Shown: positions 3,979 through 31,142 of the stretch, piece by piece
How positions within the stretch are numbered: the stretch's first letter is position 1
Layout of the letters: every line of letters starts with the position of its first letter
Assembly: GCA_964632795.1 (NCBI GenBank)
Contig: CAZWEZ010000001.1
Coordinates: 45,922-109,921, forward strand
DNA from: an uncultured Thalassospiraceae bacterium
GTDB taxonomy: Bacteria > Pseudomonadota > Alphaproteobacteria > Rhodospirillales > 2-02-FULL-58-16
Direction: 5' to 3'
Length of the DNA: 64,000 nucleotides
The notes under the pieces: model-generated
What the model was told of the DNA's origin: nothing
The model's input: only the letters and a program-made list of their open reading frames with translations
The model's database searches: none
Translations under genes and position numbers: made by a program

Positions 3979-4211
3979 CCCGCCTCCCGAAGCCGTGCGA
4001 AGGGCAGGCCCGCGAGTTCGAGATGCGTGCGACGTTCGATGGCGATGAAGGTCCGGTCGAAGTCCATATCGACGGCGACATGATCACCATCAGATGCGAC
4101 CTTGGCATCGCCCATTTGCATCTGAGTGAATTCGACCGGGTTTCCGACGAACTCGCCGCCTACCGCCGAGCCGTGGAGACCGTCGAAAACGGTGCCGCCA
4201 AGGTTGCTTAA
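3975..4211 (+). CDS. Hypothetical small protein (78 aa)
   Basis: Internal ATG 3975 (ATGA overlap with the upstream stop). Acidic, protein-like sequence MTRLPKPCEGQAREFEMRATFDGDEGPVEVHIDGD... Confidence 0.4.
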   Translation: MTRLPKPCEGQAREFEMRATFDGDEGPVEVHIDGDMITIRCDLGIAHLHLSEFDRVSDELAAYRRAVETVENGAAKVA

Positions 4212-4885
4212 TCGTCGTCCCCGACGTTCGCCCCATCGATCGAGGCTTGAAGGCTATCGCCATCGAAATCAATGAACCCCTTCGTCACTTCGGCGAATTC
4301 CCGATAGAAGGGTTCTTCGGCCATTTCAATGACCTTGTCGCAAAAGCGGGGGATCCATTGGGACAGGTGTTCGTCCAGGAAGCGCTTTTCGATTTTCAGG
4401 ATGTTGGTGGCGAACTCCTGGTTGGGTTCCGTCCAGGCCTCCGCTTCCTTCAACGCCAGTTGTTGCATGAATTCAAACTCGGCGCTGATGTGGTCGGGCA
4501 TCCCCGAGAATGAATCGTCGATCGCCAGCCCGGCCGCCTCCATGAATTTTTTGACCTTGACCGTCTCCGGCCCCCAGAACCCGGGTTCCTGTTTGGATTC
4601 CGTTTTGATATGAACGGACTCGTTCGGGGAAAGATGAGGACCCGGTCCGATGAACAGTCGCGTGAATTCGACGGCCAGGTCCTCAACGAGGTTATCGTTG
4701 GAGGTAACGAAGAACGACTCCCCCAGGGAGATCCCAAGAGCTTCCAGGACCCCGGAAAACTCCGGGGTCCTGAGTTGGGTCAGAAGCTCGCTGGAGGGCT
4801 CCGCCCGGAAAACGCCGGCCAACAGGCCATACACGTTGGAACGCGCGGTCGCCGTATCGGCCATGTCCTTCCGGGCGGATGCCAT
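4208..4885 (-). CDS. TorD/DmsD-family redox-enzyme maturation chaperone (module 1)
   Basis: 225 aa. 'SNVYGLLAGVFRAEP...LAVEFTRLFIGPGPHLSPNESVH...PDHISAEFEFMQQL' is the TorD-like signature. Lies directly downstream of the Mo subunit. Confidence 0.85.
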   Translation of the reverse strand: MASARKDMADTATARSNVYGLLAGVFRAEPSSELLTQLRTPEFSGVLEALGISLGESFFVTSNDNLVEDLAVEFTRLFIGPGPHLSPNESVHIKTESKQEPGFWGPETVKVKKFMEAAGLAIDDSFSGMPDHISAEFEFMQQLALKEAEAWTEPNQEFATNILKIEKRFLDEHLSQWIPRFCDKVIEMAEEPFYREFAEVTKGFIDFDGDSLQASIDGANVGDDD

Positions 4886-4911
4886 TGCTACGTACTCCTC
4901 GGTCTAGCGTT

Positions 4912-7440
4912 CTAGGCCTTGACGACCTTGACCACCGTATCCATCCACCTTTGCTGGCCGGTAATCGGATCCGACGAGTTGGGGATGACGTAATTGGGGT
5001 TAACGCCGTGACGATCCCAAGCCTTGTTCTTGAAATCGGGATCGTCCGCGACCACTCCCGGGAACGGATCCGCTTTTCCCGAACCGTAACGGCCGGAGAA
5101 CTCGCGACCCACGTGGAAGGAGATGGCGATGATCCCGGGGATGATCCCCTCGGTCACGCGGACAGTGGTGGTGACTTCGCCAGTGCCGCTCTTGACCTTG
5201 ATCTTGTCACCATCCTTGAGGCCCCGCTCCGTGGCGGTCTTGGTATTCATCCACCCCGGATTGTCGTGATAGATCTCCGACAACCACTTGCAGTGACTGG
5301 TCCGCGAGTGAGTATGCGCGGCGACCTTGAAGGTGGTGAGGATCAGATCGTCGGCGGCCATCGCCGCGTGCTCGGGGATCTTCTCGTAGGTCGGGAACGG
5401 ATTGAACTTCTTAACCTCCAGGAGATCGGAATAAATCTCCAGGAAGCCAGACTTATTGAGCTTGTCCGGTTTGAAGCCCTTATAGACCTCGCCATCGATC
5501 TCCTGACCGACATACCCCTTGACCGCGTTCTTGGTTTTCATGTAGCCGGTCTTGATGGCCTCTTCAGCGCTCTTGGCCTTGGACTTCTTCCATTTCCAGT
5601 ACACGCCCGTGGCTTCGTCGAGGATGACGCCGTCCGCCTTGTACTTGTCCGGCGAAACCTTCTTCTTGTAGCCGTAGAAGTCCGGCTTGGCGTTCTTATC
5701 GTACAGGACGCCGTGCTCCTTCATGTACGCGAAGCCACCGGCGGCCTTCACGGGCTTGGTCATTTCGCAGGACTGCTGGACGTAGTCCATCTTGCTGCTG
5801 TAGGCCAACTCGATTCCGAGCCGCTTCGCCAAGTCGGGCCAGACGTCGCCCAGATCCCTCGATTCGCCGAGAGGTTCCACGAAGGGCTGGCGCAGGTAGT
5901 GCTCCCCGATCTGGGTCGGCGAGACCATGTCCTCCCAGTCCCACCTCTCGAGATAGGTGGCGTCGGGGATGATGAGGTCGGCAAGCGCCGAAGACTCGTC
6001 GTAGACGATGTTCGAGGTCACCAGGTACGGCATGATGCTCTCGTCCATCATGGTCGCGCGGTTGCCGTTGGAATCGCCGTTGCAGTAGACCGGGTTGTAG
6101 CAATACCACATATAGACGTCGGGGCGACCTTGAGAGCCGTCCTTGATCACCGGCAGCACTTCCTGGCAGACCCCATGGCTCGGATAGGCGATCGTGCCTT
6201 TGAAGCCCTTGGTGATTTTCAGGGCCTTGGTCTTGACATGCTTCGACTTGGGTCCTTTCCACTTGGCGCCCACACCCTGGCAACGACCGCCGGGGCTGTT
6301 GATGTTGTCGGTGATCCCCGCCAGCAGCATCATTGACCGTTCACCGTCGCACCCGTTGAGGCCAGCGGCGACACCACGGTAGCTGACCACGACGCCCGAC
6401 TTCGCCTTGGCGAAGCCGCGCGCGAGGTCACGGATCTTGTCGGCGGGCACGCCGCTTTCCTTCGAGGCCACCTCGGGAGTGAACTTGGCCACTCTGGCCT
6501 TGACCGCGGCGATCTTCTCGTCCACCGAGGCATTGCGGTCGGCGGTGACCTTCATGAACTTGAAGAAGTCCTTCTTGTAGAGCCCCTCGTTCATGATGAC
6601 GTTGCACATCGCAAGGGCAACCAAGCCGTCCGTGCCGACATTGATGGGAAGCCACGCGTCGGCAAAGGCAGCGGTATTGGTCAAGCGCACGTCGAAGACA
6701 TACATCGGCACCTTCCGGTCCACATGGGCATCGATGAGCCTCTGGGAGGATGGAATGTGATTGGTATGGGTATTGGTCACGTTGCTGCCGAAGACCAGGA
6801 TATAGTCCGTGTTCTCGAAGTCCCAGTTGTCGTAGTGACCACCCCAGGTGAGTTCCTGAGTGGTCCACTTTCCGCCTTCGCAGATGGATGTGTGGCCAGC
6901 TATGGTCTTGGTCCCGAAAGCGCTCAGGAAGTCCTTGGTGACCTTGGACGAACTGGACTTCATGCGTCCGTAATGGAACATGAACTTCTCGGGCGTGCCG
7001 GCATCGAGCAGCGGCTTGATATGCGCCGCGATCTCGTCCAGGGCTTCGTCCCAGCCGATCCTCTTCCACTTGTGCTCGCCGCGCTTGCCGACTCGCTTGA
7101 GCGGATAAAGGATACGGTCCGGGAAATAGACCTGGTTGATGCCGCCATGGGCCCTGGCGCAGACCACGCCCTTGGTCCTGACGGAATCGGGATGCCCCTC
7201 GATCTTGACGAGGCGTCCGTCCTCCACGTAGCCGACGATCGAATCCCTGGTCACGCACTGCCAGCAAGCCGATGCGATCCGCTTTCTTTCCTTGCCGGTG
7301 GCAGGAGAGAAATCGCGTCCCCCAGCCGCCAGCTTGACGCTCCCGGCGAGGGCGGCTTTGCTTCCGATGGCCCCTGTCGCCAGGACAGCTCCGCTGGCCG
7401 TGGCCAGCTTCATGAAACTGCGTCGGTTCAAACTTTGCAT
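4912..7440 (-). CDS. Mo-bisPGD (DMSO-reductase family) oxidoreductase catalytic subunit, paralog 1 (Psr/Phs/Ttr/Arr-like)
   Basis: ORF 4912..7491, start moved to ATG 7440 behind AAGGAG. Tat signal NRRSFMKLATASGAVLATGA. N-terminal FS0 motif C-x2-C-x3-D-x27-C. 'GHTSICEGGK' is the putative Cys Mo-ligand region. About 842 aa. Confidence 0.9.
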   Translation of the reverse strand: MQSLNRRSFMKLATASGAVLATGAIGSKAALAGSVKLAAGGRDFSPATGKERKRIASACWQCVTRDSIVGYVEDGRLVKIEGHPDSVRTKGVVCARAHGGINQVYFPDRILYPLKRVGKRGEHKWKRIGWDEALDEIAAHIKPLLDAGTPEKFMFHYGRMKSSSSKVTKDFLSAFGTKTIAGHTSICEGGKWTTQELTWGGHYDNWDFENTDYILVFGSNVTNTHTNHIPSSQRLIDAHVDRKVPMYVFDVRLTNTAAFADAWLPINVGTDGLVALAMCNVIMNEGLYKKDFFKFMKVTADRNASVDEKIAAVKARVAKFTPEVASKESGVPADKIRDLARGFAKAKSGVVVSYRGVAAGLNGCDGERSMMLLAGITDNINSPGGRCQGVGAKWKGPKSKHVKTKALKITKGFKGTIAYPSHGVCQEVLPVIKDGSQGRPDVYMWYCYNPVYCNGDSNGNRATMMDESIMPYLVTSNIVYDESSALADLIIPDATYLERWDWEDMVSPTQIGEHYLRQPFVEPLGESRDLGDVWPDLAKRLGIELAYSSKMDYVQQSCEMTKPVKAAGGFAYMKEHGVLYDKNAKPDFYGYKKKVSPDKYKADGVILDEATGVYWKWKKSKAKSAEEAIKTGYMKTKNAVKGYVGQEIDGEVYKGFKPDKLNKSGFLEIYSDLLEVKKFNPFPTYEKIPEHAAMAADDLILTTFKVAAHTHSRTSHCKWLSEIYHDNPGWMNTKTATERGLKDGDKIKVKSGTGEVTTTVRVTEGIIPGIIAISFHVGREFSGRYGSGKADPFPGVVADDPDFKNKAWDRHGVNPNYVIPNSSDPITGQQRWMDTVVKVVKA

Positions 7441-7471
7441 TATCACGTTCTCCTTCGCCCTGTCGGGCCTA

Positions 7472-8314
7472 TCAATCCACCATTTCCACATAGTGATCCA
7501 ACTTGCCCTTGGTCCGCTTGGTGTAGGCGGCCTTCAGGACGTTGTTCGGATCGATGTAGTACACTTGCGGATAGGTGCCTTCCTCGGAAAGCAACACGTT
7601 GTCGGCAAGATTGTGCTCCTTGACCAACTGGGACACCTTGCTGTTCGGATCGTTGAGATCGCCGAAGATCCTCGCCTTACCCTGACAGGTGTTGACGCAA
7701 GCCGGCTCGACGCCGTTATCGAGTCTGTGCACGCACATGTCGCACTTCTCGACGCCTTGCAACTCGGGCTTCATGCCCGCTTTGACGAAGGGATGGAAGG
7801 AGCGGACACCGTACGGACACTCGTCGATGCACTTGCCGCAGCCGATGCACTGGGTATTGTCGACAAGGATCAGGCCGTCGGGCCGCTTGTAGGTGGCGCC
7901 ATCCCGATAACGGATCTTCTTGCCGTCGGGGCCCTTGAAGGACCTGCGCTTACCCGGGTACTGCGGGCAAATCTTGACGCAGATCGGAATCTTGTCCTTC
8001 TCGTTGCCTTCGCAGTGGTTGCACATCAGCGGCAGGTTGACCTTCGTCACGTCGGGGAAGGTCCCCATCATCTTGCGCTGAACGACGGTCCTGAAGCGGC
8101 CGAGGGCAACCCCGTTCTCCGCCTTGCAGGCGACCGTGCAGGCGCTGCATCCGACACACCGGCGCAGGTCCATGACCATCGCCCATCGCGGCGCATCCCG
8201 CTTCGGGGCCTGCGCGGCGACAGCCTCGCTCACGGTCACGGCGGCGACGACGGCCAAACCGGCGCCTTTCAGGACTTCCCGCCGTCCGACCTTGGTTCTT
8301 TCCATGGTACTCAT
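7472..8314 (-). CDS. Four-cluster [4Fe-4S] electron-transfer subunit with its own Tat signal (module 1)
   Basis: 280 aa. Tat signal GRREVLKGAGLAVVAA. Four Cys groups: CVGCSACTVAC, CNHC..C..IC, CIGCGKCIDEC, CDMC..C..TC. Confidence 0.9.
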   Translation of the reverse strand: MSTMERTKVGRREVLKGAGLAVVAAVTVSEAVAAQAPKRDAPRWAMVMDLRRCVGCSACTVACKAENGVALGRFRTVVQRKMMGTFPDVTKVNLPLMCNHCEGNEKDKIPICVKICPQYPGKRRSFKGPDGKKIRYRDGATYKRPDGLILVDNTQCIGCGKCIDECPYGVRSFHPFVKAGMKPELQGVEKCDMCVHRLDNGVEPACVNTCQGKARIFGDLNDPNSKVSQLVKEHNLADNVLLSEEGTYPQVYYIDPNNVLKAAYTKRTKGKLDHYVEMVD

Positions 8315-8414: not shown

Positions 8415-9884
8415 TCATTGCGCGCTTACAATCAGATCGAGGGCTTCCTCGAAATTGGCGAACGCCTCGTCCAACAACGTGATGGCGTACTTCTTGTTGT
8501 GGACGCCGTTGCCGATCGCCACGACGTTGAGAATCCTGCGTCCCTCGGTGATCAGGCGCTTGGCTTCCTGAAGCCTGTCCTCCGGCACCTCGCCCAGGGC
8601 ATCCTCCAAGACCAGGAGCGCCTCTTCCTCGATTTCCTTGACGGCCTGTACCTCGCGGCCCAGGAAATCCTTCCAATCCTGGAGCATCTTGGAATGCTCC
8701 TTGGTGTGGCAGTCGACACAAGCCTGTCCCGTACCGGTCTTCACCACCTGGCCCTTGTTGTGGGCGATCCTGATATGACAGCCTGTGCAGTTGGTCTTGA
8801 CGGCATCCATAAAGCCGGGCGCCCCCGAAACGCCTTCAACCACGGTCTCGCCGGCCAGCAACAACTTTTGGAACTTGTGGTGGTCGGGATGGCATAGCGT
8901 GCAATTGAGGCGAACGTCATCCATGTAGTTCTTCTTCTCGCCGTGCTGAATGACGTCGTGACAGTCGAAGCAGCCGGCCTTTTGGGATTCGACGTGTTTG
9001 TCGTGCATCAGCTTCTTGTCGCTCACCTTGGCGACCAGATCCGCCGTCACATTGTGGCAAGTCAGACATCCACCCGCATTGATCTTGCCCAAAACGACCT
9101 TGCCCGTGCCCTTGACGACATGGATGTGGCAGCTTTCACAGGACACACCGGCCTTCTGTAACGTCTGGTGGGTGATCGGCTGCTGGCTTGTGTCTTCTTC
9201 CGATGTCTGCTTTTGCAGCGACTTGGTCGGGATCTTGTGGCACATATCACACTTGGCCAGTCCCTGATTGAACTTGACCGTTTCAAACTTGACCTCCACG
9301 GCGTCCGGGTCATCGCCGTTAATCTTCTTGGGCTTGAGGTGACATAGGGAGCATAACTCCTTGGGCACCTCGAAGTGCTTCTCGACCGTATATTTAAAAT
9401 GGCAGGTGGTGCAGTTCAGGTTCACGCCTTCGAGGCCTTTCTCGAAGTGGATCTTGTGCTTGAACGTGGTCGAATTGATGTACTTGATCTCCTTGTCCTG
9501 GAACTTTTCCTTGGAGTGACAGCCCGAAGTCAGACAGGATCCGTCCCTCAACTTGGCGCGTATCGGCAAAGGGGCGTAGGGATCGAAAAAATACGCCGCG
9601 GCGTGTCGCAGGCCTTTGAATTTTGCGGTTAACGTCCTCTTCTCGCCGGGAAGAAAATGGCAAACCACGCACTCCGCCTGTTCGCCCTTTTCGTTATTCG
9701 CGGCGTAGTGCTTGGAAGACTTCCAGGCGTTATACGGCTCGGCCATGATATGGCAGCCCAAGCCGCAGAACGTGGACCGCGAGGTGGCATATTCCATACC
9801 CATCAGGCCACCAACCACAGAAATGACGAGAGCGGCGATGCCGATAACGACTGTTTTCCAGCCGAAGGAGAACCTCACATTCAA
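8415..9884 (-). CDS. Membrane-anchored dodecaheme c-type cytochrome with NapC/NrfH-like N-terminus (module 1)
   Basis: 489 aa. N-terminal TM helix followed by FCGLGCHIMAEPYNAWKSSKH. 10 CXXCH sites plus one CX3CH and one CX4CH (CLTSGCH). Heme-free helical C-terminal tail. Confidence 0.9.
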   Translation of the reverse strand: MNVRFSFGWKTVVIGIAALVISVVGGLMGMEYATSRSTFCGLGCHIMAEPYNAWKSSKHYAANNEKGEQAECVVCHFLPGEKRTLTAKFKGLRHAAAYFFDPYAPLPIRAKLRDGSCLTSGCHSKEKFQDKEIKYINSTTFKHKIHFEKGLEGVNLNCTTCHFKYTVEKHFEVPKELCSLCHLKPKKINGDDPDAVEVKFETVKFNQGLAKCDMCHKIPTKSLQKQTSEEDTSQQPITHQTLQKAGVSCESCHIHVVKGTGKVVLGKINAGGCLTCHNVTADLVAKVSDKKLMHDKHVESQKAGCFDCHDVIQHGEKKNYMDDVRLNCTLCHPDHHKFQKLLLAGETVVEGVSGAPGFMDAVKTNCTGCHIRIAHNKGQVVKTGTGQACVDCHTKEHSKMLQDWKDFLGREVQAVKEIEEEALLVLEDALGEVPEDRLQEAKRLITEGRRILNVVAIGNGVHNKKYAITLLDEAFANFEEALDLIVSAQ

Positions 9885-10564
9885 AGTTTATTTCCCTCTG
9901 GACGAGTCAGGATTGGCCTTGATTCCCCCCGGCGACTTAGGCCCTGATTCCCTCTCTTTTACTAAGTCTCTTGGGTCACTCTCATCCGGTTCCATCTTCC
10001 CTCGACGGGACTATGATCGTCCAATGATTCCAAGGGACTCGGATTATATTAGCTTCGAATAATATTTCAACAAGGATTCTCGAAATTCGACGCCGACGCC
10101 GGCCTGCATCGGGAGATGAAGGTGCCCATTCCGGGACATTGGCTAATGACCGGCAACCCCGCCTTCGGACCACATCAACAGCGATGTCCGGATACGCGCG
10201 AGCTTGATTCATCTCAGAAGCGCCGATGCCATGAAGGCGGATTCCCTCGCCGGCCATCTCTAGGGCATCACCGTCGTTGACACGGGCCTGGCCGGTGACA
10301 TCCTCTGCCTGGAGAGGACTCTCAGACTATATGAGCCGAGTTAATGCCCTTGAAACCATCATGAAGGAAGCATAACCTGTCCAATAAACTATGCATTCCT
10401 CGCGATTTTCAACAGGCATAGAGACATTCCCATTGTCTCAAGCCGATTCGCTGAAAACGTAATGGGGCTGCGGTCTCACAGCCAAAGAGGGAGGTGTTCA
10501 TATCATCAGGTCAGGTGAAGGAACGATCTACGCTGACGATTCAGGCAACGGCGTTCAGCCGCCG

Positions 10565-11440
10565 TTGGGGTACGGCTGCATCAGCCGTCGAACCTTCGTG
10601 GGGGCCTGCGCGGCTACGCTTGTAACCCGCGGTGCCATGGCGGCGTCCTCCGGCACGGTCAGGTTCGGGCTGACACCGGTCTTTCTGGATACCGACATCC
10701 AGCTTCTGGCCGCGCTGGAGCGTTATTTGAGTGACCGCCTCGGCCGGCCGGTCGAACTGATCAAGCGGCGCACTTATCAGGAAATAACGTTGATGTTGCT
10801 GTCCGGGTGGCTCGACGCGGCGTGGATTTGCGGTTACCCTTACGTCCGCTACCGCGACCAGCTGTACCTTCTCGCCGTGCCCGTCTACCTGGGCAAGCCC
10901 CTCTATCAGTCCTATCTGATCGTCAATGCCGACAGCCCCGTCGAGACGGTCGCCGGTTTACGGGGGCGGGTCCACGCGTTCTCCGATCCCGACAGCAACT
11001 CGGGCTTTCTGGTGACCCAGCACCTTCTCGCCACCATGGGCGAATCACCGGATACCTTCTTCAGCCGTTATTTCTTCACCTACGGCCACCGCAACGTGGT
11101 GCGCGCCGTTTCCTCCAGCCTTGCCGAGTCTGGCAGCGTCGACGGCTACGTATGGGAGGTCATAAAACACAATGGAAGCAGACTTGTCGAAGGCACCCGG
11201 GTGATCCGCAAATCCGAGTGGCTCGGCTTCCCCCCGGTGGTCTGCAACCGCAACGCCCGCGACGTTGATGCCATCAAGGGCATTGCCGAAGCCTTGATTT
11301 CGATGAACGAGGATGACCTCGGCCAGGAAATACTGGCGGCCCTGCACCTGGACGGTTTCATCCGTGGCAGCCCCCCCCTGTTCGACGGGATCGAGGAGAA
11401 GTACAAATTCGTCCGCAACGTGTTTCGTGACAAGACATGA
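10565..11440 (+). CDS. Periplasmic PhnD-like (phosphonate/oxyanion-binding family) substrate-binding protein, AioX/ArxX-like sensor partner
   Basis: 291 aa. Tat-like leader SRRTFVGACAATLV. 'VRFGLTPVFLD...YQEITLMLLSGWLDAAWICGYPY...DPDSNSGFLV' matches the PhnD-type SBP fold pattern. Overlaps the histidine kinase start. Confidence 0.75.
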   Translation: MGYGCISRRTFVGACAATLVTRGAMAASSGTVRFGLTPVFLDTDIQLLAALERYLSDRLGRPVELIKRRTYQEITLMLLSGWLDAAWICGYPYVRYRDQLYLLAVPVYLGKPLYQSYLIVNADSPVETVAGLRGRVHAFSDPDSNSGFLVTQHLLATMGESPDTFFSRYFFTYGHRNVVRAVSSSLAESGSVDGYVWEVIKHNGSRLVEGTRVIRKSEWLGFPPVVCNRNARDVDAIKGIAEALISMNEDDLGQEILAALHLDGFIRGSPPLFDGIEEKYKFVRNVFRDKT

Positions 11441-14218: not shown

Positions 14219-14252
14219 CCGGGTTCGGTTTTCCGTACGCCGGGCCGGTGCG

Positions 14253-14288
14253 TGTTCTGATTTCCGAACAGAGCGCGGCATGCCGCGC
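14253..14288. promoter_or_regulatory. Two palindromes: candidate enhancer (UAS) sites or terminator of the regulator gene
   Basis: TGTTC-N8-GAACA at 14253..14270. Perfect 16-bp palindrome GCGCGGCATGCCGCGC at 14273..14288. The block ends 35 bp (begins 70 bp) upstream of the sigma54-like promoter. Confidence 0.35.
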
Positions 14289-22840: not shown

Positions 22841-23485
22841 ATGAAACCCTTAGCATGGTTTGTATGGCTTGTATCACTGTTCTCGGTGATGACGTTGACC
22901 ATAGACACCTACGCGAGTGATGAGCCCACCCCCACGAAAGGAAGCCATCTATATCGCTCTTTCTGCTTTATCTGCCATGGAACGGGCGGCAAAAGCAAAG
23001 GTCCCCTTGCCATTAAGTTGAACCTCGAACCGGCTGATCTTTCCTCGGAGAAATACCAGACGTTAAAAGTGGAGGAATTGGCCGACATCATCGGGGGCTA
23101 CTGGAAAAAGCGGGACACGATAATGCCCAACTGGGGTAAGGTGTTACCCAAGACAGACCTGCTCGATATTGCGTCGTACATTCCCAATCTATCCCGGAAA
23201 GACCTTAGGTTCATTGGGGATACACGCCGTGGCAGGGTTACTTATAGAAGAGCCTGTGCGGCATGCCATGGTCAATTTGGAACGGGAAGAGGTCCTCTTG
23301 CGGATCTGATGAAAATTCCCATGGTCGATTTCACAAATTCAATAAAGATGGAGAAGATAACAGACGAAAAGCTGATTAATTATATCCGGGAGGGCGAAGG
23401 AAAATTCATGCCATCGTGGAAAGGGAGTCTTTACGACGACGAAATCATCGATGTAGCCGCCTATGTCCGCATGCTGGGGAGATAG
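22841..23485 (+). CDS. Periplasmic diheme class-I cytochrome c (c4-like)
   Basis: 214 aa. Signal peptide. Two CxxCHG sites (CFICHG, CAACHG), each followed by a distal Met-containing segment (IMPNW, FMPSW). Confidence 0.85.
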   Translation: MKPLAWFVWLVSLFSVMTLTIDTYASDEPTPTKGSHLYRSFCFICHGTGGKSKGPLAIKLNLEPADLSSEKYQTLKVEELADIIGGYWKKRDTIMPNWGKVLPKTDLLDIASYIPNLSRKDLRFIGDTRRGRVTYRRACAACHGQFGTGRGPLADLMKIPMVDFTNSIKMEKITDEKLINYIREGEGKFMPSWKGSLYDDEIIDVAAYVRMLGR

Positions 23486-23616: not shown

Positions 23617-26148
23617 TCAGGCCTTGGCTACCGTAACCACCGTATCCATCCAACGCTGCTGACCGCTGATCGGTTCGGGCGAGTTGGGAATGATCCAGTT
23701 GGGGTGGGTTCCGTTGACTTCCCACCATTTCAACTCCTCGCGCGGAGAAACGCTCACCCCCCTCGGGGACCACTTGTTGGCGGCGTATCTCCCATACTCC
23801 CAACGGCCGCAATGGGTGGAGATGGCGATGGTCCCCGGAATGATCGTATGTGTCACCTTCGCCGTGGCTTCCACCTCGCCAATGTTGGACTTGACCTTGA
23901 TCCTGTCCCCGTTCTCGATGCCCCGGGCCTCTGCCGAGACTGGATGAATCAAGGCCGGATTGTCATGGTAAAGCTCTGTCAGCCACCTGCAGTTCTGAGT
24001 GCGTGACAGGGTTTGGAGGTTTACCTTGTAGGTGATCAGGATCATTTCATCGGGCTTCAACGACTGATGCTCCGGTATGGGGACGTAGGCCGGCAGCGGC
24101 GAAAAGCCCTTTTCCCCCAGGATCGACGAATAGATCTCGAAGTACCCCGACTTGTTGAGAACGCCGGGACGGAAGCCGGCATAGACCTCCTCGCCGATCT
24201 TCTGGCCGACATAGCCCTTGTAGGCTCCGGCGGTTTCGCTGTATCCCTTGTCCCAGGCCTCCTTTTCGCTTCCCAGGCCGGCCGCCGCCCAGTTCCAGTA
24301 GACGCCCGTCTTGAGGTCCTTCAACACCCCCTTCTGCCAGTAGACCTCGGGAGGAACGATCTTCTTATAGGCGTTGAACCGCGGCTTGGCCTCGGGGTCG
24401 TGGTACACGCCGTGCTTCTTCATGTATTCGAAACCACCCGCTTTTTTCACGACGGCCGTTTTCTCACAGGTTAACTCCACGAATTCCTCGTGGGTTTCGA
24501 AGTCCAGGGGAAAGCCCATCCGCTCGGCGAGTTCGCAGCAGACGTCGCCGAAATCCCGGCTGTAGTCCAGCGGGTCCACCAAGGGCTGGCGAATATAGTA
24601 CTCCGGCACCTGGGTGGGAGAGAATGCGTCCTCGAAGTCGTACTTTTCCAGGTAGGTCGTATCGGGAAGGATGAGGTCGGCGAACGCCGCGGATTCGTCG
24701 TAGAACGGCGTCACGCAGACCGTATAGGGGATCAGGGATTCGTCCTTGAGGACATCGATGTTTTCCTGCACCTCGCCATTGGCGTACACCGGGTTGTAGC
24801 AGTACCACATATAGACGTCGGGGCGGCCGGCACCGCCATCCTTGATCGCCTTGAATACCTGGTGGCCGACGCCGTTCGTCGGCAAGGCGACGTCGCCATT
24901 CATGCCGTCAAGGATGTCGAGCCGGCGCGGCTTGGGATAGCCCTTGGGGTTCGAGGGGAATTCCCATTCGGGCTTGACGCTCATGACCCTGCCGCCGGGA
25001 TTGTCGATGTTGCCGGTAATCGCCGCAAGCATCTGTATGGCGCGCTCGGTCTCGACTCCGTTGTAGTGCGCCGTCGCCCCCCTGGAGTTGATGACGCACG
25101 CCGGTTTGGTGGTCGCGAACTCGACGGCGACGTCCCTGATGACCTGCGCCTTGACGCCGCTGATCTTTTCCGCCCATTCGGGGGTATAGGGAGACAGGTG
25201 TTCCTTCAACGCCGTGATCTTGTCGGCTACCGGCGCCTCGTGGGACTCCGTAACCTTGCAGAACTCGAGAAACGCCTCCCCTTCGCCACGATAAAGGTCC
25301 TCGCTCATCACGACGTGGCACATGGCCAGGATGACGGCCAAGTCGGTTCCCGGCTTGATCGGAATCCACTTCTGGGACTTGGAGGCGGTATTGGAAAGCC
25401 GGACGTCGAACGTCACCATCCGTACCCTCCGGTCGACCAGGGAGGCGGCCAGCCGACGGACCATGGCGACGTGGTTGATGTGGGCCTCGACGATGTTGCT
25501 GCCGAAGTTGAGGATGAACCCGGTGTTGTCGAAGTCCCAGTTGTCATCAGGTTCGCCCCAGGTCAGTTCGTGGGCGGTACGCCGGGCGCCCTGGCCGAGG
25601 CAGGTATGATTGGCGTGGGTGGCGGTGCCAAAGGCGGGGAGGAATATCTCGCCGATTAGCTTTTCCATGCTCGCCGAGATCCACCCGTGATGGAACATGA
25701 ATTTCTCCGGGTGGCCCGAATCACGGAGCGGCTTGAGGCGCCCGGCCAACTCATCGAGCGCGTCGCTCCAGTGCAACTGGGTCCATTTCCCCTCGCCCCG
25801 CTTGCCGACGCGCTTGAGGGGATAGAGAATCCTGTCCGGGTCGTAAATCTGCTCGAAACCGGCCTGGCCCCTGGCGCAAACCTTTCCCATGGTCCTGATC
25901 GATTGGGGGTGGCCTTCGATCTTGACGACCCGCCCCATCTCCACATAGCCGAGGGCGGGACACCGGCTGACACAGAGCGCGCAGGCGGTGGGAATGCTCT
26001 TGCGGGCTACCCCGCTCAGATGGGAAAAGTCCAACCCTCCCTTGGCCAAATCACCCTTATGACTGGCAAGCGCCTTGCGCCCCGTGAACGTAGCCGCGGC
26101 TCCAGCGACGGCGGCGCCGAGTTGCAGAACTTTCCGACGGGTGAACAT
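23617..26148 (-). CDS. Mo-bisPGD oxidoreductase catalytic subunit, paralog 3 (more divergent)
   Basis: 843 aa. Tat signal TRRKVLQLGAAVAGAA. Canonical FS0 motif CALCVSRC-x27-C. 'NHTCLGQGARR' occupies the position of HTSIC in paralogs 1 and 2. Confidence 0.9.
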   Translation of the reverse strand: MFTRRKVLQLGAAVAGAAATFTGRKALASHKGDLAKGGLDFSHLSGVARKSIPTACALCVSRCPALGYVEMGRVVKIEGHPQSIRTMGKVCARGQAGFEQIYDPDRILYPLKRVGKRGEGKWTQLHWSDALDELAGRLKPLRDSGHPEKFMFHHGWISASMEKLIGEIFLPAFGTATHANHTCLGQGARRTAHELTWGEPDDNWDFDNTGFILNFGSNIVEAHINHVAMVRRLAASLVDRRVRMVTFDVRLSNTASKSQKWIPIKPGTDLAVILAMCHVVMSEDLYRGEGEAFLEFCKVTESHEAPVADKITALKEHLSPYTPEWAEKISGVKAQVIRDVAVEFATTKPACVINSRGATAHYNGVETERAIQMLAAITGNIDNPGGRVMSVKPEWEFPSNPKGYPKPRRLDILDGMNGDVALPTNGVGHQVFKAIKDGGAGRPDVYMWYCYNPVYANGEVQENIDVLKDESLIPYTVCVTPFYDESAAFADLILPDTTYLEKYDFEDAFSPTQVPEYYIRQPLVDPLDYSRDFGDVCCELAERMGFPLDFETHEEFVELTCEKTAVVKKAGGFEYMKKHGVYHDPEAKPRFNAYKKIVPPEVYWQKGVLKDLKTGVYWNWAAAGLGSEKEAWDKGYSETAGAYKGYVGQKIGEEVYAGFRPGVLNKSGYFEIYSSILGEKGFSPLPAYVPIPEHQSLKPDEMILITYKVNLQTLSRTQNCRWLTELYHDNPALIHPVSAEARGIENGDRIKVKSNIGEVEATAKVTHTIIPGTIAISTHCGRWEYGRYAANKWSPRGVSVSPREELKWWEVNGTHPNWIIPNSPEPISGQQRWMDTVVTVAKA

Positions 26149-26166: not shown

Positions 26167-27120
26167 CTATAACCCCACCGGGCCTGTGATCTGGCCGGCG
26201 ATGACGACGACATAACGCAGCATGAACCCGCCAATCATGACGGCGATCGAAAGCGAGATCTCGACCACTCTCGGCGCCGCGTATTCGCGGTGGTAGACAA
26301 GCTTGGGCACGACGTAGACAAATTCGACGAGAGCCGGAATAAGAAGACCGATCAATACCACCCACAGCCAGAAAGCCATTCCAAGCTCGCCGCCCGGCAG
26401 GATCACCGATACCGCAGCCTTGACACTGCCGATGGTCAGCTGAGCGAACATCACGAACAGGAAAATCGTCAACAATTCGAAGCCGATCAGAACGATGTCG
26501 GTGGCCGCAAGCAGGTAGCTGCTCTGATGGAAAAGTTTTAACGCCTCGGGATTATCGGGGGGATTCCGGTAGAAAAGCGCCTGCGCCAGGATGATCACGG
26601 CGATGCCGGTGGACAGGGAGGAAATAAAGAACAGCAGGGCGAGGATGGGCGAATTCCAGAACGGCCGCGCCGGCATCGCGCCGAGCATGATTCCGGTGTA
26701 CAGGGCGACCGCGATCCCCATCGGCATGCAGATCCAAGCCAGTCCCTTTCGCACGCGATGCAGCCGGTCCCAAATGAACGGCGGCCACGGCAGGAACGTC
26801 AGGGCATATATCACGCTGATGAGGATGAACACGGACAGCAACCACGTGCCGATGGACATCGGAGAAAGGTTGATCAGCTTGAACAGGTTCAACGCCCTTA
26901 ACGGCGCGCCCAGTTCGAAAACGATCATTCCGGTACCGATCATGGTTATGATCGGGCCGATGAACGCGCCGTAAGCGGCGATGGCGAAGTGGCGCCCGCC
27001 GAACCCACCGGCGCCACCGCGCAGCAGCACCGAGCTACTGATCGTGACGGCGCCGGCGCCCATGCCGGCCAGAAACAGGTAGCCTATGACAGGTAAGCCC
27101 CAGTCCAAATGCGCACCCAT
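26167..27120 (-). CDS. NrfD/PsrC/TtrC-like membrane subunit (module 3)
   Basis: ATG 27120 lies inside track ORF 26167..27483. 317 aa, with about 8 hydrophobic helices by eye. Starts 2 nt after the FeS gene stop. Confidence 0.8.
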   Translation of the reverse strand: MGAHLDWGLPVIGYLFLAGMGAGAVTISSSVLLRGGAGGFGGRHFAIAAYGAFIGPIITMIGTGMIVFELGAPLRALNLFKLINLSPMSIGTWLLSVFILISVIYALTFLPWPPFIWDRLHRVRKGLAWICMPMGIAVALYTGIMLGAMPARPFWNSPILALLFFISSLSTGIAVIILAQALFYRNPPDNPEALKLFHQSSYLLAATDIVLIGFELLTIFLFVMFAQLTIGSVKAAVSVILPGGELGMAFWLWVVLIGLLIPALVEFVYVVPKLVYHREYAAPRVVEISLSIAVMIGGFMLRYVVVIAGQITGPVGL

Positions 27121-27122: not shown

Positions 27123-27896
27123 CTATCTCCTCTTCTTCTTCCTGCGATGCGTGATCACATGGACCTCCCGCACCTCGGGCCGGTTGGCGTCGCTCTCGTC
27201 GGTATGATCGGCACCGATGTAGTAGACGTTGGGCACCGTGCCGATCCCTCCCCTGAGCACGGAGACCGATTCGCTGGCGATGAGTTGCGAAATCTCGCTT
27301 TCCGGATCGCTCACCTCGCCGAAGAAGCGCGCCCCTCCGATGCAGGTGTTGACGCAGGACGGAACCACGCCTTTCGTGAGGCGATGCAGACAGAAATCGC
27401 ACTTGTCGGCAAACCCGGTGACCGGATTGAGGAACCGGGAGTCGTAGGGGCAGGCATGAATGCAATACTTGCAGCCGATGCAAAGCCCGGAATCGACGAC
27501 CACGACGCCGTCCATCTCACGCTTGTAGGTGGCGTCGGTGGGGCAGACGATGACGCAGGGCGGCACCGAGCAGTGATTGCACAGCCGGGGCAGGAAGCTT
27601 CTCCCGACATAGGGATATACACCCTTTTCGATGTACTCGACCCATGATCTTTCGACCCCCAGCGGAACGTCGAACTCGGCCTTGCAGGCGATGGAACAGG
27701 AGTGGCAACCGATGCATCGCCGCACGTCGATGAGCATCCCGTAGCGGATGGTCTTCTTTTTTACTTCTTCTTCTTTGTCATCCGCCTCGGTGGGCTCGGG
27801 GGCCGCCACGACGGCGGCGGCGGCCAACGCCACCCCGCCGGCGATCATTTTGACGGCATCCCTTCGACCGGTGAGCTTGTCGTTATCATTGGTCAT
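27123..27896 (-). CDS. Four-cluster FeS subunit with Tat signal (module 3)
   Basis: 257 aa. Tat signal GRRDAVKMIAGGVALAAA. Cys groups CIGCHSCSIAC, CNHCSVPPCVIVC, CIGCKYCIHAC, CDFC..C..TC. Confidence 0.9.
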   Translation of the reverse strand: MTNDNDKLTGRRDAVKMIAGGVALAAAAVVAAPEPTEADDKEEEVKKKTIRYGMLIDVRRCIGCHSCSIACKAEFDVPLGVERSWVEYIEKGVYPYVGRSFLPRLCNHCSVPPCVIVCPTDATYKREMDGVVVVDSGLCIGCKYCIHACPYDSRFLNPVTGFADKCDFCLHRLTKGVVPSCVNTCIGGARFFGEVSDPESEISQLIASESVSVLRGGIGTVPNVYYIGADHTDESDANRPEVREVHVITHRRKKKRR

Positions 27897-27965
27897 TACG
27901 AATTCCTAAGCGAAGTGCCCGAAGATAACGGTAGAGAACCGTTCATGTTGCTTCCCGGACGGCTG

Positions 27966-28547
27966 TCAAGCCGGCGGCACCTTTTTGATCGGACCGTCTT
28001 CGCGCAGATCGACTTCGCGGTGGATCAAGTTGTAGTGACACTCGATGCACGTTTTCTTTTCCTCCAGAGCCAACTTGTGAGCTTCCCGCCCTTTGATTCG
28101 CCGGAGCTTGATCTCGGCCTCGATATGACAACTCCGGCAGGTGACGCTGTCGTTTTCCATAAACCGGTCGCGCACCCGGTAGGCCATTGCCGCCCGCGGG
28201 GGGATCCATTCGCCCGCGCGCTCGGCGTCGCGATCCCGGAAATGGCCGAACAAATCCGATACCTGGGCGAAATGGGCGTAGGCAAAGGTCGCCTTCCAGA
28301 AACCCTTGGGCAGATGGCAATCGACGCATTTCCCCTGCACAGGCGAAGAAGGATGGATCTTGGACGCCGACAGCCGGGCCAAGCCATCGTACTCCCATGG
28401 AAAATGGCAATAGACGCATACGATGTCTTGGGCGAAGAAGTTGCGGGTCACCGGCTCGAAGGCGAACAGCCCGCCGATCACGGCCGCAACGATCGATGCG
28501 ACAAGGAGTCTTGTGACGCGGGGTGAGAACATCTTGAAGAGAAACAC
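27966..28547 (-). CDS. NapC/NirT-family membrane-anchored tetraheme cytochrome
   Basis: 193 aa. N-terminal TM helix. Heme sites CVYCH, CVDCH, CRSCH, CIECH. Confidence 0.85.
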   Translation of the reverse strand: MFLFKMFSPRVTRLLVASIVAAVIGGLFAFEPVTRNFFAQDIVCVYCHFPWEYDGLARLSASKIHPSSPVQGKCVDCHLPKGFWKATFAYAHFAQVSDLFGHFRDRDAERAGEWIPPRAAMAYRVRDRFMENDSVTCRSCHIEAEIKLRRIKGREAHKLALEEKKTCIECHYNLIHREVDLREDGPIKKVPPA

Positions 28548-28714: not shown

Positions 28715-30130
28715 TCACCCCCCGCTATCAAGCAGATCGATGGAATCCTCGAAGTTGGCGAACGCCTCATCGAGGATCATGATCGAGTATTTCTTGTTGT
28801 GGACAGCGTTGCCGATGCGGACGATATCCAGGAATTCCTGTCCCTTGACGATCATTTTCCTGGCCTCGGCGATCTTCTCGCCGCTGACATTGCCCTCGGC
28901 CGCGGACAGCGCCTGCAGGGCCTCTTTTTCGGCCTCGATAATGAACTCGAGTTCCTTATCGGTCACCTTCTTCCAGTCGTCGAGCATCTTGTCGTGCTCG
29001 GGCGTGTGACATCCAACGCAGGCCTTGCCGTCGCTGGTCTGCACCGTACGGCCCTTGCTGTGCTTGGTCTTGAGGTGGCAGCCCATGCAATTGGTGTTGA
29101 CCGCGGCCATGAGGTTGGGAGTCGCCGCAACGTTCTCGCCGACCGCCTCGCCGGCAAGCAGCTGTTTTTGCTGTTTGTGCTCATCCAGGTGGCACAGCGC
29201 GCAGTTGGCCCGCGCCAGTTCGAGATGGTCGGGCTGGTTCTTGTGCTCGATAACGTCGTGGCAGTCGAAGCAGAGCGCCTTGCGGGTGGCGACGTGCTTC
29301 TCGTGCATCAGTTTCTTCTTTTGCCATTTGGCCAGGTCAGCGGGGTCGTTGTGGCAATCTCCGCAGTTTTCCTGCCTGACCTGGCCCTCGCCCTTGATCT
29401 CCTGGAGATGACAGCTCTCGCAGGGAACCTTCGCCTCCTGGAGGGTTTGATGGGTGATGGGTTTGGCGTTGGGATCGTCGGTCTTCATCTGGCTCTGCAG
29501 GGATTTTGTCGGAATGGTGTGGCAGAGCGCGCACTTGCCGCGTTCCTTGTTGAAACCGACCTTCTTGAAGTGGCACAGATAACAGGTCTCCTTGGGCACC
29601 TCGAAATGCTTCTTGGGCGAGGCCTTGACGTGGCAGGTCCCGCAACGGAGTTCTTGGCCCTCGATCACAAGGGCCATGGGCGATTTTGCGAAATGGCCCT
29701 TGTGGTTGAAGACCACCTTCTTGGTGTACTCGATTTTCTTGTCCTCGAACCTCTCCTTGATGTGGCAGTCCGAACGCAGGCATGACTCGTCGCTGACATT
29801 GGCGCGATTGCTCAAGGGCGCATCGGGTTCGGCGAGATAGGTGAAGATTTCCGAGAGAAGGGTGTACTTGGCTTTCCAGGAGGACTCCTCGCCCGGGGCG
29901 AAGTGGCAGGCGACGCATTCGGCTTGCTTGTGCTTGAGGTTGTTCTTTGAATTGTGTTTGGAGGCCTTCCAGGCGTCGTATTGCTCGGTCATGATGTGGC
30001 AGCTGCCGCCACAAAAGGATGATTGCGTGTAGTAGTAGTCGGCGCCGATGACGGCAGCAGCCCCCAGGGAAATCACGGCGAATATAGCTACGAAGATAAT
30101 TTTCCATCCGAAAGAAAAATTGAGTGCCAT
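28715..30130 (-). CDS. Membrane-anchored dodecaheme cytochrome (module 3)
   Basis: 471 aa. FCGGSCHIMTEQYDAWKASKH (CX3CH), CLRSDCH (CX4CH) and 10 CXXCH sites. Same C-terminal tail (NAVHNKKYSIMILDEAFANFED). Confidence 0.9.
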   Translation of the reverse strand: MALNFSFGWKIIFVAIFAVISLGAAAVIGADYYYTQSSFCGGSCHIMTEQYDAWKASKHNSKNNLKHKQAECVACHFAPGEESSWKAKYTLLSEIFTYLAEPDAPLSNRANVSDESCLRSDCHIKERFEDKKIEYTKKVVFNHKGHFAKSPMALVIEGQELRCGTCHVKASPKKHFEVPKETCYLCHFKKVGFNKERGKCALCHTIPTKSLQSQMKTDDPNAKPITHQTLQEAKVPCESCHLQEIKGEGQVRQENCGDCHNDPADLAKWQKKKLMHEKHVATRKALCFDCHDVIEHKNQPDHLELARANCALCHLDEHKQQKQLLAGEAVGENVAATPNLMAAVNTNCMGCHLKTKHSKGRTVQTSDGKACVGCHTPEHDKMLDDWKKVTDKELEFIIEAEKEALQALSAAEGNVSGEKIAEARKMIVKGQEFLDIVRIGNAVHNKKYSIMILDEAFANFEDSIDLLDSGG

Positions 30131-30491
30131 ATTATCATCCTCTCTGGATAACCGCGCACGATTGCCGTTATCTTTACATCCGAGTTATTTAGAGGGTTTG
30201 AATTCTGGGTGTATGCGGCGGGGCAACAGCAGTCCACGGAATCGGCCGTGAATCGGGCTGGAGGGAATTTCGCGTCACCTTTACTCCCTCACGACTGAGC
30301 ATGCGCCCTACGTACCACGGCTTTTTTTATTATGCAATGCCAAAACGACGGCCCGGCCTCGACAGAAAGCCGGCTTGTCCCGTCGTACCGACAATTATTG
30401 TTCGATTACTACTCACCATGGTCTGCAGGGAATATTACCTTCGGAAATTATGTTAATTTCAAGTATTGCGGAGAGATCGTTTCGGACAAGG

Positions 30492-31142
30492 TTAATTCGA
30501 TAGCATGCGGATATAGGCGGCCACATCGATAATTTCCGAGTCGCTGAATATCCCCTCCCACGGCGGCATGAATGTTTTTTGACCTTTCCGGATCGCTTTA
30601 ATGATGTCTTCGTCGCTTATCCCCTTCATGTCCTCTTTATTTGTGTAATCGATCACGGTAATTTGTATCAGGTGAGAAAGGAGGCCCTTTCCCTTGCCCC
30701 TTTTTCCATGGCATGACTTACAGGCACTATTATAGATAGCCCTGCCTCGGCGTGTGTCTCCCCTGAACTTGAGATCTTTCTTGTTCAAATTCTTAATGTG
30801 CGACGCGACATCGATCAATTCCTTCTTGGACAGCACCATGCCCCAGCTCGGCATTTTCGTAACATCGATCTGCCGGTAGTCCCCAATGGTGACGGCTAGA
30901 TCGTAAATGTTTTTTTCCTGATATTTCTTTGAAGCAAGATCCGAGGGTTCAATCTTAAGTTTTACTGCGACAGGCCCCTTGCTCTTGCCGTCCATCCCAT
31001 GGCAAACAAAGCAGTATCCGCGATAAAGATTGGCGCCCAGTAAAGGATTTGGTTCTTCTTGCGCGTATGTGACCATGGACAGTGTCACTGCCGAGATGAA
31101 TGCTGCAAACCACATCACTGATTTCATCTTAACATTTCCCAA
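30492..31142 (-). CDS. Periplasmic diheme cytochrome c (paralog of 22841..23485)
   Basis: 216 aa. Signal peptide. CFVCHG and CKSCHG sites. Colinear with the module 2 diheme protein. Confidence 0.85.
   Translation of the reverse strand: MGNVKMKSVMWFAAFISAVTLSMVTYAQEEPNPLLGANLYRGYCFVCHGMDGKSKGPVAVKLKIEPSDLASKKYQEKNIYDLAVTIGDYRQIDVTKMPSWGMVLSKKELIDVASHIKNLNKKDLKFRGDTRRGRAIYNSACKSCHGKRGKGKGLLSHLIQITVIDYTNKEDMKGISDEDIIKAIRKGQKTFMPPWEGIFSDSEIIDVAAYIRMLSN

Follow-up and report, generated by a model that had tools for sequence, protein, structure and literature searches.

Introduction

Arsenic redox cycling is presently tracked by three marker genes, aioA, arxA, and arrA. The arxXSR and arxB2ABCD genes, found for example in Sulfuricella denitrificans pSCD (PMC6683785), combine a divergent X-S-R sensor that has a sigma-54 regulator with a Cys-type molybdenum (Mo) subunit exported by the twin-arginine translocation (Tat) pathway, a four-cluster iron-sulfur (FeS) subunit, a TorD chaperone, and the NrfD-type anchor ArxC. 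Arr of Shewanella sp. ANA-3 is a periplasmic heterodimer of an A and a B subunit that is joined toward quinol by CymA, a membrane cytochrome of the NapC/NirT family (PMC2762525). Aio is encoded by aioXSR-aioBA, in which AioB is a Rieske protein. An anchored NapC/NirT-family cytochrome with extra hemes may also be encoded in the operon of one periplasmic Mo enzyme and dedicated to it, as in TorCA/DorCA (PMC11727998). Described here is an island of three molybdoenzyme modules at positions 4208 to 31142 of a 64,000-nucleotide stretch of DNA (hereafter the window) from an uncultured Thalassospiraceae bacterium (contig CAZWEZ010000001.1, positions 45,922 to 109,921).

The following gene labels are used. 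H12 is a dodecaheme cytochrome, B is the four-cluster FeS subunit, A is the Mo subunit, and D is the TorD chaperone. X is a periplasmic binding protein, S is a sensor kinase, and R is a response regulator. T1, T2, and T3 are active-site subtypes of the Mo subunit.

The best explanation of modules 1 and 2, to which we assign a probability of about 0.5, is that they encode an arsenic oxidoreductase that is none of Aio, Arx, or Arr, is placed under AioX/AioS/AioR-type control, and acts mainly as an arsenite oxidase in this host. Module 3 belongs, judged by its motifs and gene order (NapC-B-NrfD-A), to a sister subfamily with a remodelled active site and no link to the sensor. What appears to be new is a complex iron-sulfur molybdoenzyme (CISM) with an undescribed dodecaheme partner, together with a substrate clue that points to arsenic.

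Comparison with Described Systems

Modules 1 and 2 resemble Arx in the divergent X-S-R sensor with its sigma-54 regulator and in the Tat-exported Cys-type Mo subunit, the four-cluster FeS subunit, and the TorD chaperone. Unlike Arx, the conserved gene order is H12-B-A-D and not B2-A-B-C-D, no ArxB2 is present, and the membrane partner is a dodecaheme NrfH-like cytochrome where Arx has the NrfD-type ArxC. The A subunits are 28–29% identical to Sulfuricella ArxA, a reference taken from the canonical arxXSR/arxB2ABCD cluster, and lie outside the Arr/Arx clade.

The likeness to Arr and CymA lies in the periplasmic A-B heterodimer with a membrane cytochrome of NapC/NirT likeness, and in subtypes T1 and T2 it extends to equivalents of ArrA residues R165, H189, S190, C193, and K198. 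The A subunits differ from ArrA in overall identity (26–27% to ANA-3 ArrA), in the Met or His at the position of Y166, and in the first cluster motif (FS0), where Asp replaces the third Cys. The cytochrome also differs, having 12 hemes and being encoded in the operon.

With Aio, the island shares the sensor clade, the operator palindrome, sigma-54 dependence, and a c-type cytochrome gene alongside. At the family level the catalytic subunits show no relationship (21% identity to AioA), and domain scans of the island genes found no Rieske (AioB) gene.

Psr, Phs, and Ttr are the nearest relatives in hidden Markov model (HMM) and PDB searches. In module 3 and some relatives, as in these systems, the order is B-NrfD-A and the anchor is PsrC/TtrC-like. 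What sets modules 1 and 2 apart is the cytochrome anchor, the TorD gene, and the arsenite-type sensor, and the A subunits are only 27–30% identical to plasmid PhsA. Like TorC, H12 is an operon-encoded, anchored cytochrome of NapC/NirT likeness with extra hemes. TorC has five hemes and serves the monomeric TorA, which has no FeS subunit, whereas here 12 hemes accompany an A-B heterodimer.

Molybdenum Subunits

The module 1 A subunit (4912–7440, minus strand) is of subtype T1 (YGRMK and HTSICEGGKW). These coordinates start at the Tat RR motif, and the longest open reading frame (ORF) extends to 7491. The module 2 A subunit (15503–17962, plus strand) was identified by domain and family scores and is of subtype T2 (YGRHK and HTSICESAKW). 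The module 3 A subunit (23617–26148, minus strand) is of subtype T3 (HGWIS and HTCLGQGARR).

All three A subunits contain Pfam domains PF00384, PF01568, and PF04879 (Molybdopterin, Molydop_binding, and Fe4S4 in the module 1 copy), as expected of the CISM type in the family of dimethyl sulfoxide (DMSO) reductases. PF10518 and RR motifs are present and indicate a Tat signal. A first prediction made from the sequence (the original prediction) had tentatively assigned them to a Tat-exported, Cys-type Psr/Phs/Arr branch. This assignment is supported by the top HMM, which is PhsA, and by the top PDB sequence matches, which are PsrA (1e-40) and ArrA (1e-39).

The system had also been called possibly uncharacterised, and every NCBIfam equivalog score of the A subunits is in fact far under its cutoff. 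The scores are 304 (module 1), 332, and 345 bits against a cutoff of 694 for PhsA (NF012032), and 153 (module 1), 160, and 201 bits against 1600 for ArrA (NF041714). They are 87–108 bits against 1750 for TtrA (NF011567), and 30–35 bits against 359 for AioA (TIGR02693). As a clade, the A subunits are 26–30% identical to ArrA, ArxA, PhsA, and DmsA.

A phylogeny of the catalytic subunits had been proposed as a check. In a crude neighbor-joining (NJ) tree with ANA-3 ArrA, Sulfuricella ArxA, plasmid PhsA, E. coli DmsA, and Acuticoccus AioA as references, and with PsrA (including that of Wolinella), TtrA, SrrA, SrdA, and SreA left out, the A subunits form their own clade outside ArrA and ArxA. An enzyme of Azoarcus sp. 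KH32C is the sister of this clade. On the sub-cutoff HMM scores and the tree placement, the A subunits were rejected as members of Arr, Arx, Aio, Phs, and Ttr. By these comparisons, the A subunits are members of a widespread, unnamed clade of periplasmic Mo-bis(pyranopterin guanine dinucleotide) (Mo-bisPGD) enzymes.

The Sensor Genes and Candidate Operators

The original prediction had stated that no substrate-diagnostic accessory gene is in the window. This is wrong. It had overlooked three regulator genes, X, S, and R, which lie inside the island between modules 1 and 2 (10565–14218) and encode an AioXSR-type arsenite sensor, followed by AioR-operator-like sites and a sigma-54 element before module 2. 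X (10565–11440, plus strand) contains a Phosphonate-bd domain. S (11437–12897, plus strand) has the Pfam arrangement HAMP-HisKA-HATPase. R (12884–14218, plus strand) is a sigma-54-dependent response regulator of the AioR type, with Response_reg, Sigma54_activat, and HTH_8 domains.

Against the arsenite-binding AioX of Rhizobium sp. NT-26, which has been crystallised (PDB 6esv), X gives an E-value of 5.9e-87. The match to the arsenate-binding ArrX is weaker (1.5e-32). The binding pocket common to AioX, ArxX, and ArrX consists of Y88, C106, Y131, S161, S163, H192, and D210, and C106 is missing in PhnD (Badilla 2018, PMC5908839). All seven residues are conserved in the window X, as is the V-F-L loop that closes on arsenite. 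This hydrophobic loop is of the AioX/ArxX (arsenite) type and is not found in ArrX. Among 51 operon-linked X proteins, the pocket residues are kept in 50–51, with position 163 being Ser in 44 and Thr in seven.

The plasmid-borne homologs nearest to X (48–53% identity) are true aioX genes, found in the aioXSR-aioBA arsenic islands of Acuticoccus, Paracoccus seriniphilus, NT-26, and Sinorhizobium M14. An NJ tree places the window X interspersed among the AioX proteins linked to aioBA. X is thus predicted to be an AioX-type arsenic-oxyanion binding protein and an arsenite-type sensor.

The published AioR operator is GT[CT]CGN6CG[GA]AC, and its relaxed form is GTNCGN6CGNAC (Andres 2013, PMC3673622). 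Two AioR-operator-like palindromes, GTTCGGTTTTCCGTAC and GTTCTGATTTCCGAAC, were located by motif match at 14223–14269 on the plus strand. The first (14223–14238) begins 5 nucleotides past R and is the sole exact match in the window to the relaxed motif. The second (14254–14269) has one mismatch. In Acuticoccus and Paracoccus the same palindrome, GTTCGGAAATCCGAAC, also stands ahead of aioB, and in three surveyed loci (L013, L059, and L070) it stands ahead of H12. A third near-match, GTTCGGGGATCTGAAC (19912–19927, one mismatch), falls within the NrfC-like gene of module 2, upstream of the NrfD and H12 genes of that module.

A sigma-54 −24/−12-like element, CGGCATGATTCTTGCT, is located ahead of module 2 at 14323–14338 on the plus strand and agrees with the consensus at 10 of 12 positions. 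Sites of this quality (10 or more of 12 positions) were found upstream of 30 of 66 H12 genes, as opposed to 0.3% of shuffled sequences. A Sigma54_activat domain in R, a −24/−12 element, and an operator, which together mark an AioXSR-type regulon, are all present for module 2 and not for module 1. Upstream of module 1 is a sigma-70-like promoter, TTGAAA and TATAAT separated by 16 nucleotides (10043–10070, minus strand, 11 of 12 consensus positions). Modules 1 and 2 both lie beside the sensor and appear from these elements to be regulated differently. The H12 gene of module 3 has a sigma-54-like site with 9 of 12 positions approximately 170–200 nucleotides upstream.

Distribution of the Operon

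A survey by tblastn and ORF clustering yielded 82 loci. The core operon is H12-B-A-D, led by the H12 gene, and it recurs in approximately 65 of the 82, with hosts among Thiodiazotropha, Sedimenticola, Rhodospirillales, Desulfobacterota, and Nitrospirota. A is present in 79 loci, B and D in 73 each, H12 in 65, X in 51, and S and R in 49 each. The X-S-R genes are syntenic with H12-B-A-D in approximately 50 loci across phyla. Searches started from two H12 homologs recover the same arrangement, R-S-X divergent from H12-B-A-D.

The original prediction held that each Mo module is paired with an NrfH-like dodecaheme cytochrome, in an architecture outside the known operon types, and it suggested a survey of their co-occurrence. 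The pairing is confirmed, and no description of it was found in the literature. The architecture is not peculiar to the window, since it is a conserved operon in many phyla. A full-text literature search found no paper describing the H12-B-A-D operon, and Wells 2020 makes no mention of such a clade. The candidate for "alternative arsenite oxidation" in Thioalkalivibrio is ruled out as the same system, as it is a cytoplasmic Soe-like enzyme.

More than 1400 homologs of the Mo subunits exist, none of which is informatively named. A scan of one genome per GTDB species returned 531 relatives, a number that bounds the size of the clade from above. The taxonomic make-up was taken from the best 80 of these, which are nearly all metagenome-assembled genomes (MAGs). 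Relatives occur in Kiloniellales/Rhodospirillales, Ca. Thiodiazotropha, Sedimenticola, Desulfobacterales, Syntrophobacterales, Nitrospirota, Nitrospinota, and Mariprofundaceae. Those nearest to the window genes are MAGs of Kiloniellales and Rhodospirillales.

Variations on the operon are seen elsewhere. Seven Desulfobacterota loci, among them L034 (4203–6410), encode after X one 735-aa membrane protein with a HAMP and a sigma-54 activator domain. This fusion replaces the separate kinase and response regulator in all seven. A small receiver-only protein is encoded ahead of H12 in 10 loci, six of which are among those carrying the fusion. In 21 of the 82 loci, a secreted protein with a protein tyrosine phosphatase (PTPase) fold adjoins the TorD gene. 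It is absent from the window. Examples are L030 (13316–13969, minus strand) and L001 (13277–13906, plus strand), and the hosts include Thiodiazotropha, Sedimenticola, and Magnetovibrio. This protein has an invariant N-terminal ACGWWGDGE motif and no catalytic CX5R motif, and it could be an oxyanion-binding pseudo-phosphatase.

Arsenic Genes near Related Loci

Arsenic resistance (ars) genes lie within 10 kb of H12-B-A-D in four loci. L056 has arsR-acr3-arsD-arsA-arsC, L037 has arsR and acr3, and L054 has acr3. L001, from Magnetovibrio sp. PR-2, has an ArsR-type regulator, an ArsP permease, and a thioredoxin-like gene.

Plasmid pAZKH of Azoarcus sp. KH32C carries a 37%-identical relative in the arrangement R-S-X divergent from B-NrfD-A-TorD, directly after arsR-arsC-arsD-arsA-acr3. 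This relative is PhsA-like rather than ArrA-like. The arsenic island to which it belongs (L083/L084, NC_020548.1, approximately 50–68 kb) contains a SAM methyltransferase gene, the ars genes, the divergent R-S-X and B-NrfD-A-TorD genes, and five more small genes, including one for a 368-aa FeS protein. A literature search found no paper on the pAZKH arsenic island.

Active-Site Subtypes

The three A paralogs are, by their motifs, three conserved active-site subtypes. The T1 (YGRMK and HTSICEGGKW) and T2 (YGRHK and HTS(V/I)CE(A/S)AKW) motifs both retain the ArrA residue equivalents listed above. T2 and T1 differ at the position of ArrA Y166. Of the subtypes, T2 is most tightly tied to X, which is found within 9 kb in 40 of 45 loci.

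The T3 family motifs are HGWIS and (D/N)N(S/T)CLGQ(S/G)AR. Relative to T1 and T2, the Arg is lost, the Lys is replaced by Arg, and the Cys is located two residues earlier. The candidate Mo-ligand Cys of modules 1 and 2 aligns with ArrA C193 (HTSIC), while that of module 3 is the Cys of CLGQ. The His is lost in most T3 homologs, and the window copy (ANHTC) retains it. Of the top 120 homologs, at least 53 share this motif set, and T3 is on that basis a conserved subfamily. A pseudogene or degenerate reading of the module 3 active site was rejected because of the same conservation.

Elsewhere, T3 occurs in the order EB_dh heme protein-NapC-B-NrfD-A, without TorD and without X-S-R. Examples of the T3 operon (HGWIS and CLGQSAR) are L086 (5223–11538) and a contig of JGI 3300072015. 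NapC and NrfD stand together in this single operon, which is unusual. The original prediction had described the island as three paralogous modules. Their paralogy stands, but the modules are not alike. The subtypes are distinct and conserved, and T3 is found elsewhere without the sensor and TorD.

The FS0 motif is CxxCxxxD-Xn-C in modules 1 and 2, and CxxCxxxC in module 3. The substitution of Asp for the third Cys is located at 7260–7275 in the module 1 Mo region and at 15670–15700 in module 2, and it is also seen in L083 (8986–11625). It is found in the H12-linked A subunits and the Azoarcus KH32C enzyme, while the NrfD-anchored T1 and the T3 subunits retain the third Cys.

Iron-Sulfur Subunits and Cytochromes

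The module 1 B subunit (7472–8314, minus strand) has a Tat-type signal, a Fer4_11 domain, and 16 Cys residues for four [4Fe-4S] clusters. The TtrB, DsrO, and ArrB models all score under their cutoffs. The module 2 B subunit (14603–15472, plus strand) also has 16 Cys and Fer4_11, and is 70% identical to that of module 1. The module 3 B subunit (27123–27896, minus strand) matches Fer4_11 at 2.4e-28 and scores 225 bits against a TtrB cutoff of 416. B subunits of the H12 type carry an insertion of 30–40 aa.

The H12 genes are located at 8415–9884 (module 1, minus strand), 21308–22711 (module 2, plus strand), and 28715–30130 (module 3, minus strand). The module 2 copy is 46–47% identical to the other two. 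Each H12 has 12 heme motifs, namely 10 CxxCH, one Cx3CH, and one Cx4CH, and all 12 are invariant in 42 homologs. The Cx3CH is the heme-1 motif, and its CH-x-M signature is likewise invariant in the 42 sequences. H12 has an N-terminal transmembrane helix and an NrfH/NapC-like first domain. A match to the NapC/NirT/NrfH family (PF03264, Cytochrom_NNT) is found in the module 1 copy only, at 67.5 bits. The sole family match of the module 2 and 3 copies is NrfH (TIGR03153) at 45–59 bits, which is under the cutoff of 134.

The AlphaFold2 model of H12 is poor, with a mean confidence (pLDDT) of 61. Its confident part, a C-terminal three-helix region, gave weak Foldseek matches (E approximately 2e-3) to NrfA, octaheme nitrite reductase (ONR), OcwA, and MccA, which is only a hint of likeness to the helical domain of those proteins. 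Because of the analogy with CymA-ArrAB (PMC2762525) and TorC-TorA (PMC11727998), H12 may serve as the dedicated membrane and quinone link of A-B, in place of an NrfD-type anchor.

Module 2 encodes three further redox proteins between D and H12, all on the plus strand. The first is a membrane-anchored tetraheme cytochrome of the c3/c7 type (18723–19202), with four CxxCH motifs and an N-terminal transmembrane segment. It precedes an NrfC/DsrO-like FeS protein (19232–20044), which has a Fer4_11 domain (2.7e-25) and a Tat-like SRREFL signal, and a 402-aa NrfD-family membrane subunit (20047–21255, Pfam NrfD 9.8e-35). An NrfC-NrfD pair accompanies H12-B-A-D in 14 Desulfobacterota and Nitrospirota loci as well. 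This recurrence, with the tetraheme gene in front, suggests a second quinone module that is Nrf/Dsr/Cbc-like.

A diheme c4-type cytochrome with two Cytochrome_CBB3 domains is encoded in module 2 (22841–23485, plus strand) and in module 3 (30492–31142, minus strand), the two being 52% identical. A c4 gene adjoins H12-B-A-D in eight of the surveyed loci.

Island Layout and Flanking Element

All 18 structural genes claimed by the original prediction were found at or near the predicted positions by ORF listing, translation, and domain scans. The totals also hold, with three Mo subunits, four FeS subunits, two NrfD-like subunits, and 48 heme motifs (36 + 4 + 4 + 2 + 2).

The remaining genes are as follows. 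The module 1 TorD-like maturation chaperone D is at 4208–4885 on the minus strand (Pfam Nitrate_red_del, 1.9e-26). The module 2 D is at 17995–18630 on the plus strand (Nitrate_red_del, 3.6e-26), where the longest ORF sits in a different frame. Module 3 contains a 317-aa membrane anchor of the NrfD/PsrC type (26167–27120, minus strand, Pfam NrfD 9e-42) and a NapC/NirT tetraheme cytochrome (27966–28547, minus strand) with four CxxCH motifs and a Cytochrom_NNT match of 2.5e-24. The ttrBCA-like gene order that had been noted for module 3 is present, and in that module only.

The paralogy of the modules is far above chance, as had been proposed. Protein identities are 49–59% for the Mo subunits, 46–49% for the dodecaheme cytochromes, 40–70% for the FeS subunits, 52% for c4, and 56% for TorD. 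The paralogous stretches that were found are mostly 70–81% identical as DNA, a few short segments reaching up to 91%. These values rule out recent duplication or gene conversion among the modules, and the paralogs are by this measure old.

A 12.9-kb integrated element adjoins the island on its right (31835–44775). It is bordered by 53-nucleotide direct repeats at 31835–31887 and 44695–44747, the second of which is the 3' half of a tRNA-Pro gene (44699–44775, minus strand). Its cargo includes a tyrosine integrase (32060–33370) and a portal-like DUF4055 gene (39066–40505). A reading of the molybdoenzyme genes as a mobile island is unsupported, as the integrase belongs to this separate element bounded by tRNA-Pro attachment sites.

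Discussion

In the proposed mechanism, As(III) would be oxidised at the Mo of A. From there, electrons would travel by way of FS0, also in A, and B's four [4Fe-4S] clusters into the 12 hemes of H12 at the membrane. Their exit would be the NrfH-like quinone site or the diheme c4 cytochromes, which would hand them to a terminal oxidase or to enzymes of denitrification. The tetraheme/NrfC/NrfD unit of module 2 would open a further route coupled to quinone. The Desulfobacterota and Nitrospirota, which are menaquinone-based, may use the same enzyme backwards for arsenate respiration. Arsenite oxidation is favored as the direction in this host because of the AioX/ArxX-type sensor, the adjacent c4 cytochromes, and carriers that are mostly sulfur-oxidising, ubiquinone-type Proteobacteria.

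Several points weigh against this assignment. Electron transfer from As(III) to ubiquinone is approximately thermoneutral. The roles of the ArrA active-site residues, to which those of T1 and T2 were compared, are those reportedly assigned by Glasser et al. 2018. The best family HMM is the thiosulfate reductase PhsA (303–345 bits) and not ArrA (153–201 bits), and many carriers are sulfur-cycle organisms, which is compatible with a sulfur substrate. Arsenic genes are present in just 4–5 of approximately 80 flanks, a modest enrichment. Upstream of module 1, no sigma-54 or AioR-type site was found, only the sigma-70-like promoter. Pocket conservation alone does not set the oxyanion selectivity of X (Badilla 2018, PMC5908839). 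Cytochromes of the NrfH/NapC/CymA type are classically quinol dehydrogenases that feed reductases, as when CymA feeds ArrAB (PMC2762525).

The last point leads to the alternative that fares best, which we nevertheless consider unlikely, namely that the enzyme serves chiefly to reduce arsenate in respiration. H12 would oxidise quinol at its NrfH-like site and pass electrons through B to the Mo, where As(V) would be reduced. The arrangement would parallel that of CymA and ArrAB, where this usually quinol-oxidising family supplies a cytochrome essential for ArrAB-dependent arsenate respiration (PMC2762525). The CH-x-M heme-1 signature, invariant in H12, fits this direction. So does the occurrence of the operon, with additional NrfCD and multiheme genes, in menaquinone-type anaerobes (Desulfobacterales, Syntrophobacterales, and Nitrospirota). 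Conserved Arg, His, Ser/Thr, and Lys residues also align with those of ArrA that reportedly bind arsenate. The NrfH-type anchor and the menaquinone-type carriers together favor arsenate reduction at least in those lineages. The sensor, however, is of the AioX/ArxX (arsenite) type and not the ArrX (arsenate) type, and the window X groups with sensors that control the genes of arsenite oxidase. The carriers are for the most part sulfur-oxidising Proteobacteria, and the adjacent c4-type cytochromes are typical oxidase donors.

A sulfur compound as the substrate is rather doubtful. Here the enzyme would reduce or oxidise polysulfide, thiosulfate, tetrathionate, or thioarsenate, and the PhnD-like sensor would see a sulfur or thio-arsenic species. 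The first-ranked HMM and PDB matches (PhsA and PsrA), the resemblance of B to TtrB and DsrO, and the ttrBCA order of module 3 are all consistent with such a substrate. The carriers are mainly sulfur-cycle bacteria (Thiodiazotropha, Sedimenticola, Desulfocapsa, and Desulfobacterales), and one flank contains rhodanese and TauE genes. The scores nevertheless fall far short of the cutoffs for PhsA and TtrA, and the A subunits have low identity to PhsA. The pocket of X, including Cys106, is that of the arsenic-binding AioX, ArxX, and ArrX, the AioR-operator-like sites are identical to those before aioB, and one relative sits within an ars island.

An oxidoreductase of another metalloid (Sb(III)/Sb(V), selenite, or tellurite) sensed by the AioX-like protein is improbable, since the regulatory elements match arsenite oxidase operons and the sole accessory genes seen are ars, with nothing specific to another element, even though pocket conservation does not determine selectivity (PMC5908839), three active-site subtypes in one genome suggest different substrates, and the Magnetovibrio operon has MerR, cation-efflux, and ArsP-type genes next to it.

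The arsenic oxidoreductase proposed for modules 1 and 2 can be extended to the whole operon family, with somewhat less confidence than even odds. In this wider proposal, H12-B-A-D would be a third, phylogenetically independent family of respiratory arsenic oxidoreductases beside Aio and Arr/Arx, present in hundreds of species. It would share the same arsenite sensor family and use the dodecaheme NrfH-like cytochrome as its membrane conduit. The carriers would include symbionts of lucinid clams (Ca. Thiodiazotropha), Sedimenticola, marine Rhodospirillales, sulfate reducers, and Nitrospirota. The hypothesis is directly testable because two carriers at least are in culture, namely Magnetovibrio sp. 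PR-2 and the tractable Azoarcus sp. KH32C, which represents the sister clade.

If the proposal is true, part of the arsenic cycling in marine and sediment settings escapes surveys based on aioA, arxA, and arrA, most of all in sulfidic marine sediments, chemosynthetic symbioses, and oxygen-deficient waters. The enzyme family would also account for arsenite oxidation in organisms without aio and arx, and would represent a new coupling of Mo/FeS enzymes to the membrane, via a 12-heme NrfH-like cytochrome and not an NrfD anchor. The three co-resident active-site subtypes provide a natural system for the evolution of substrate specificity in the DMSO-reductase family.

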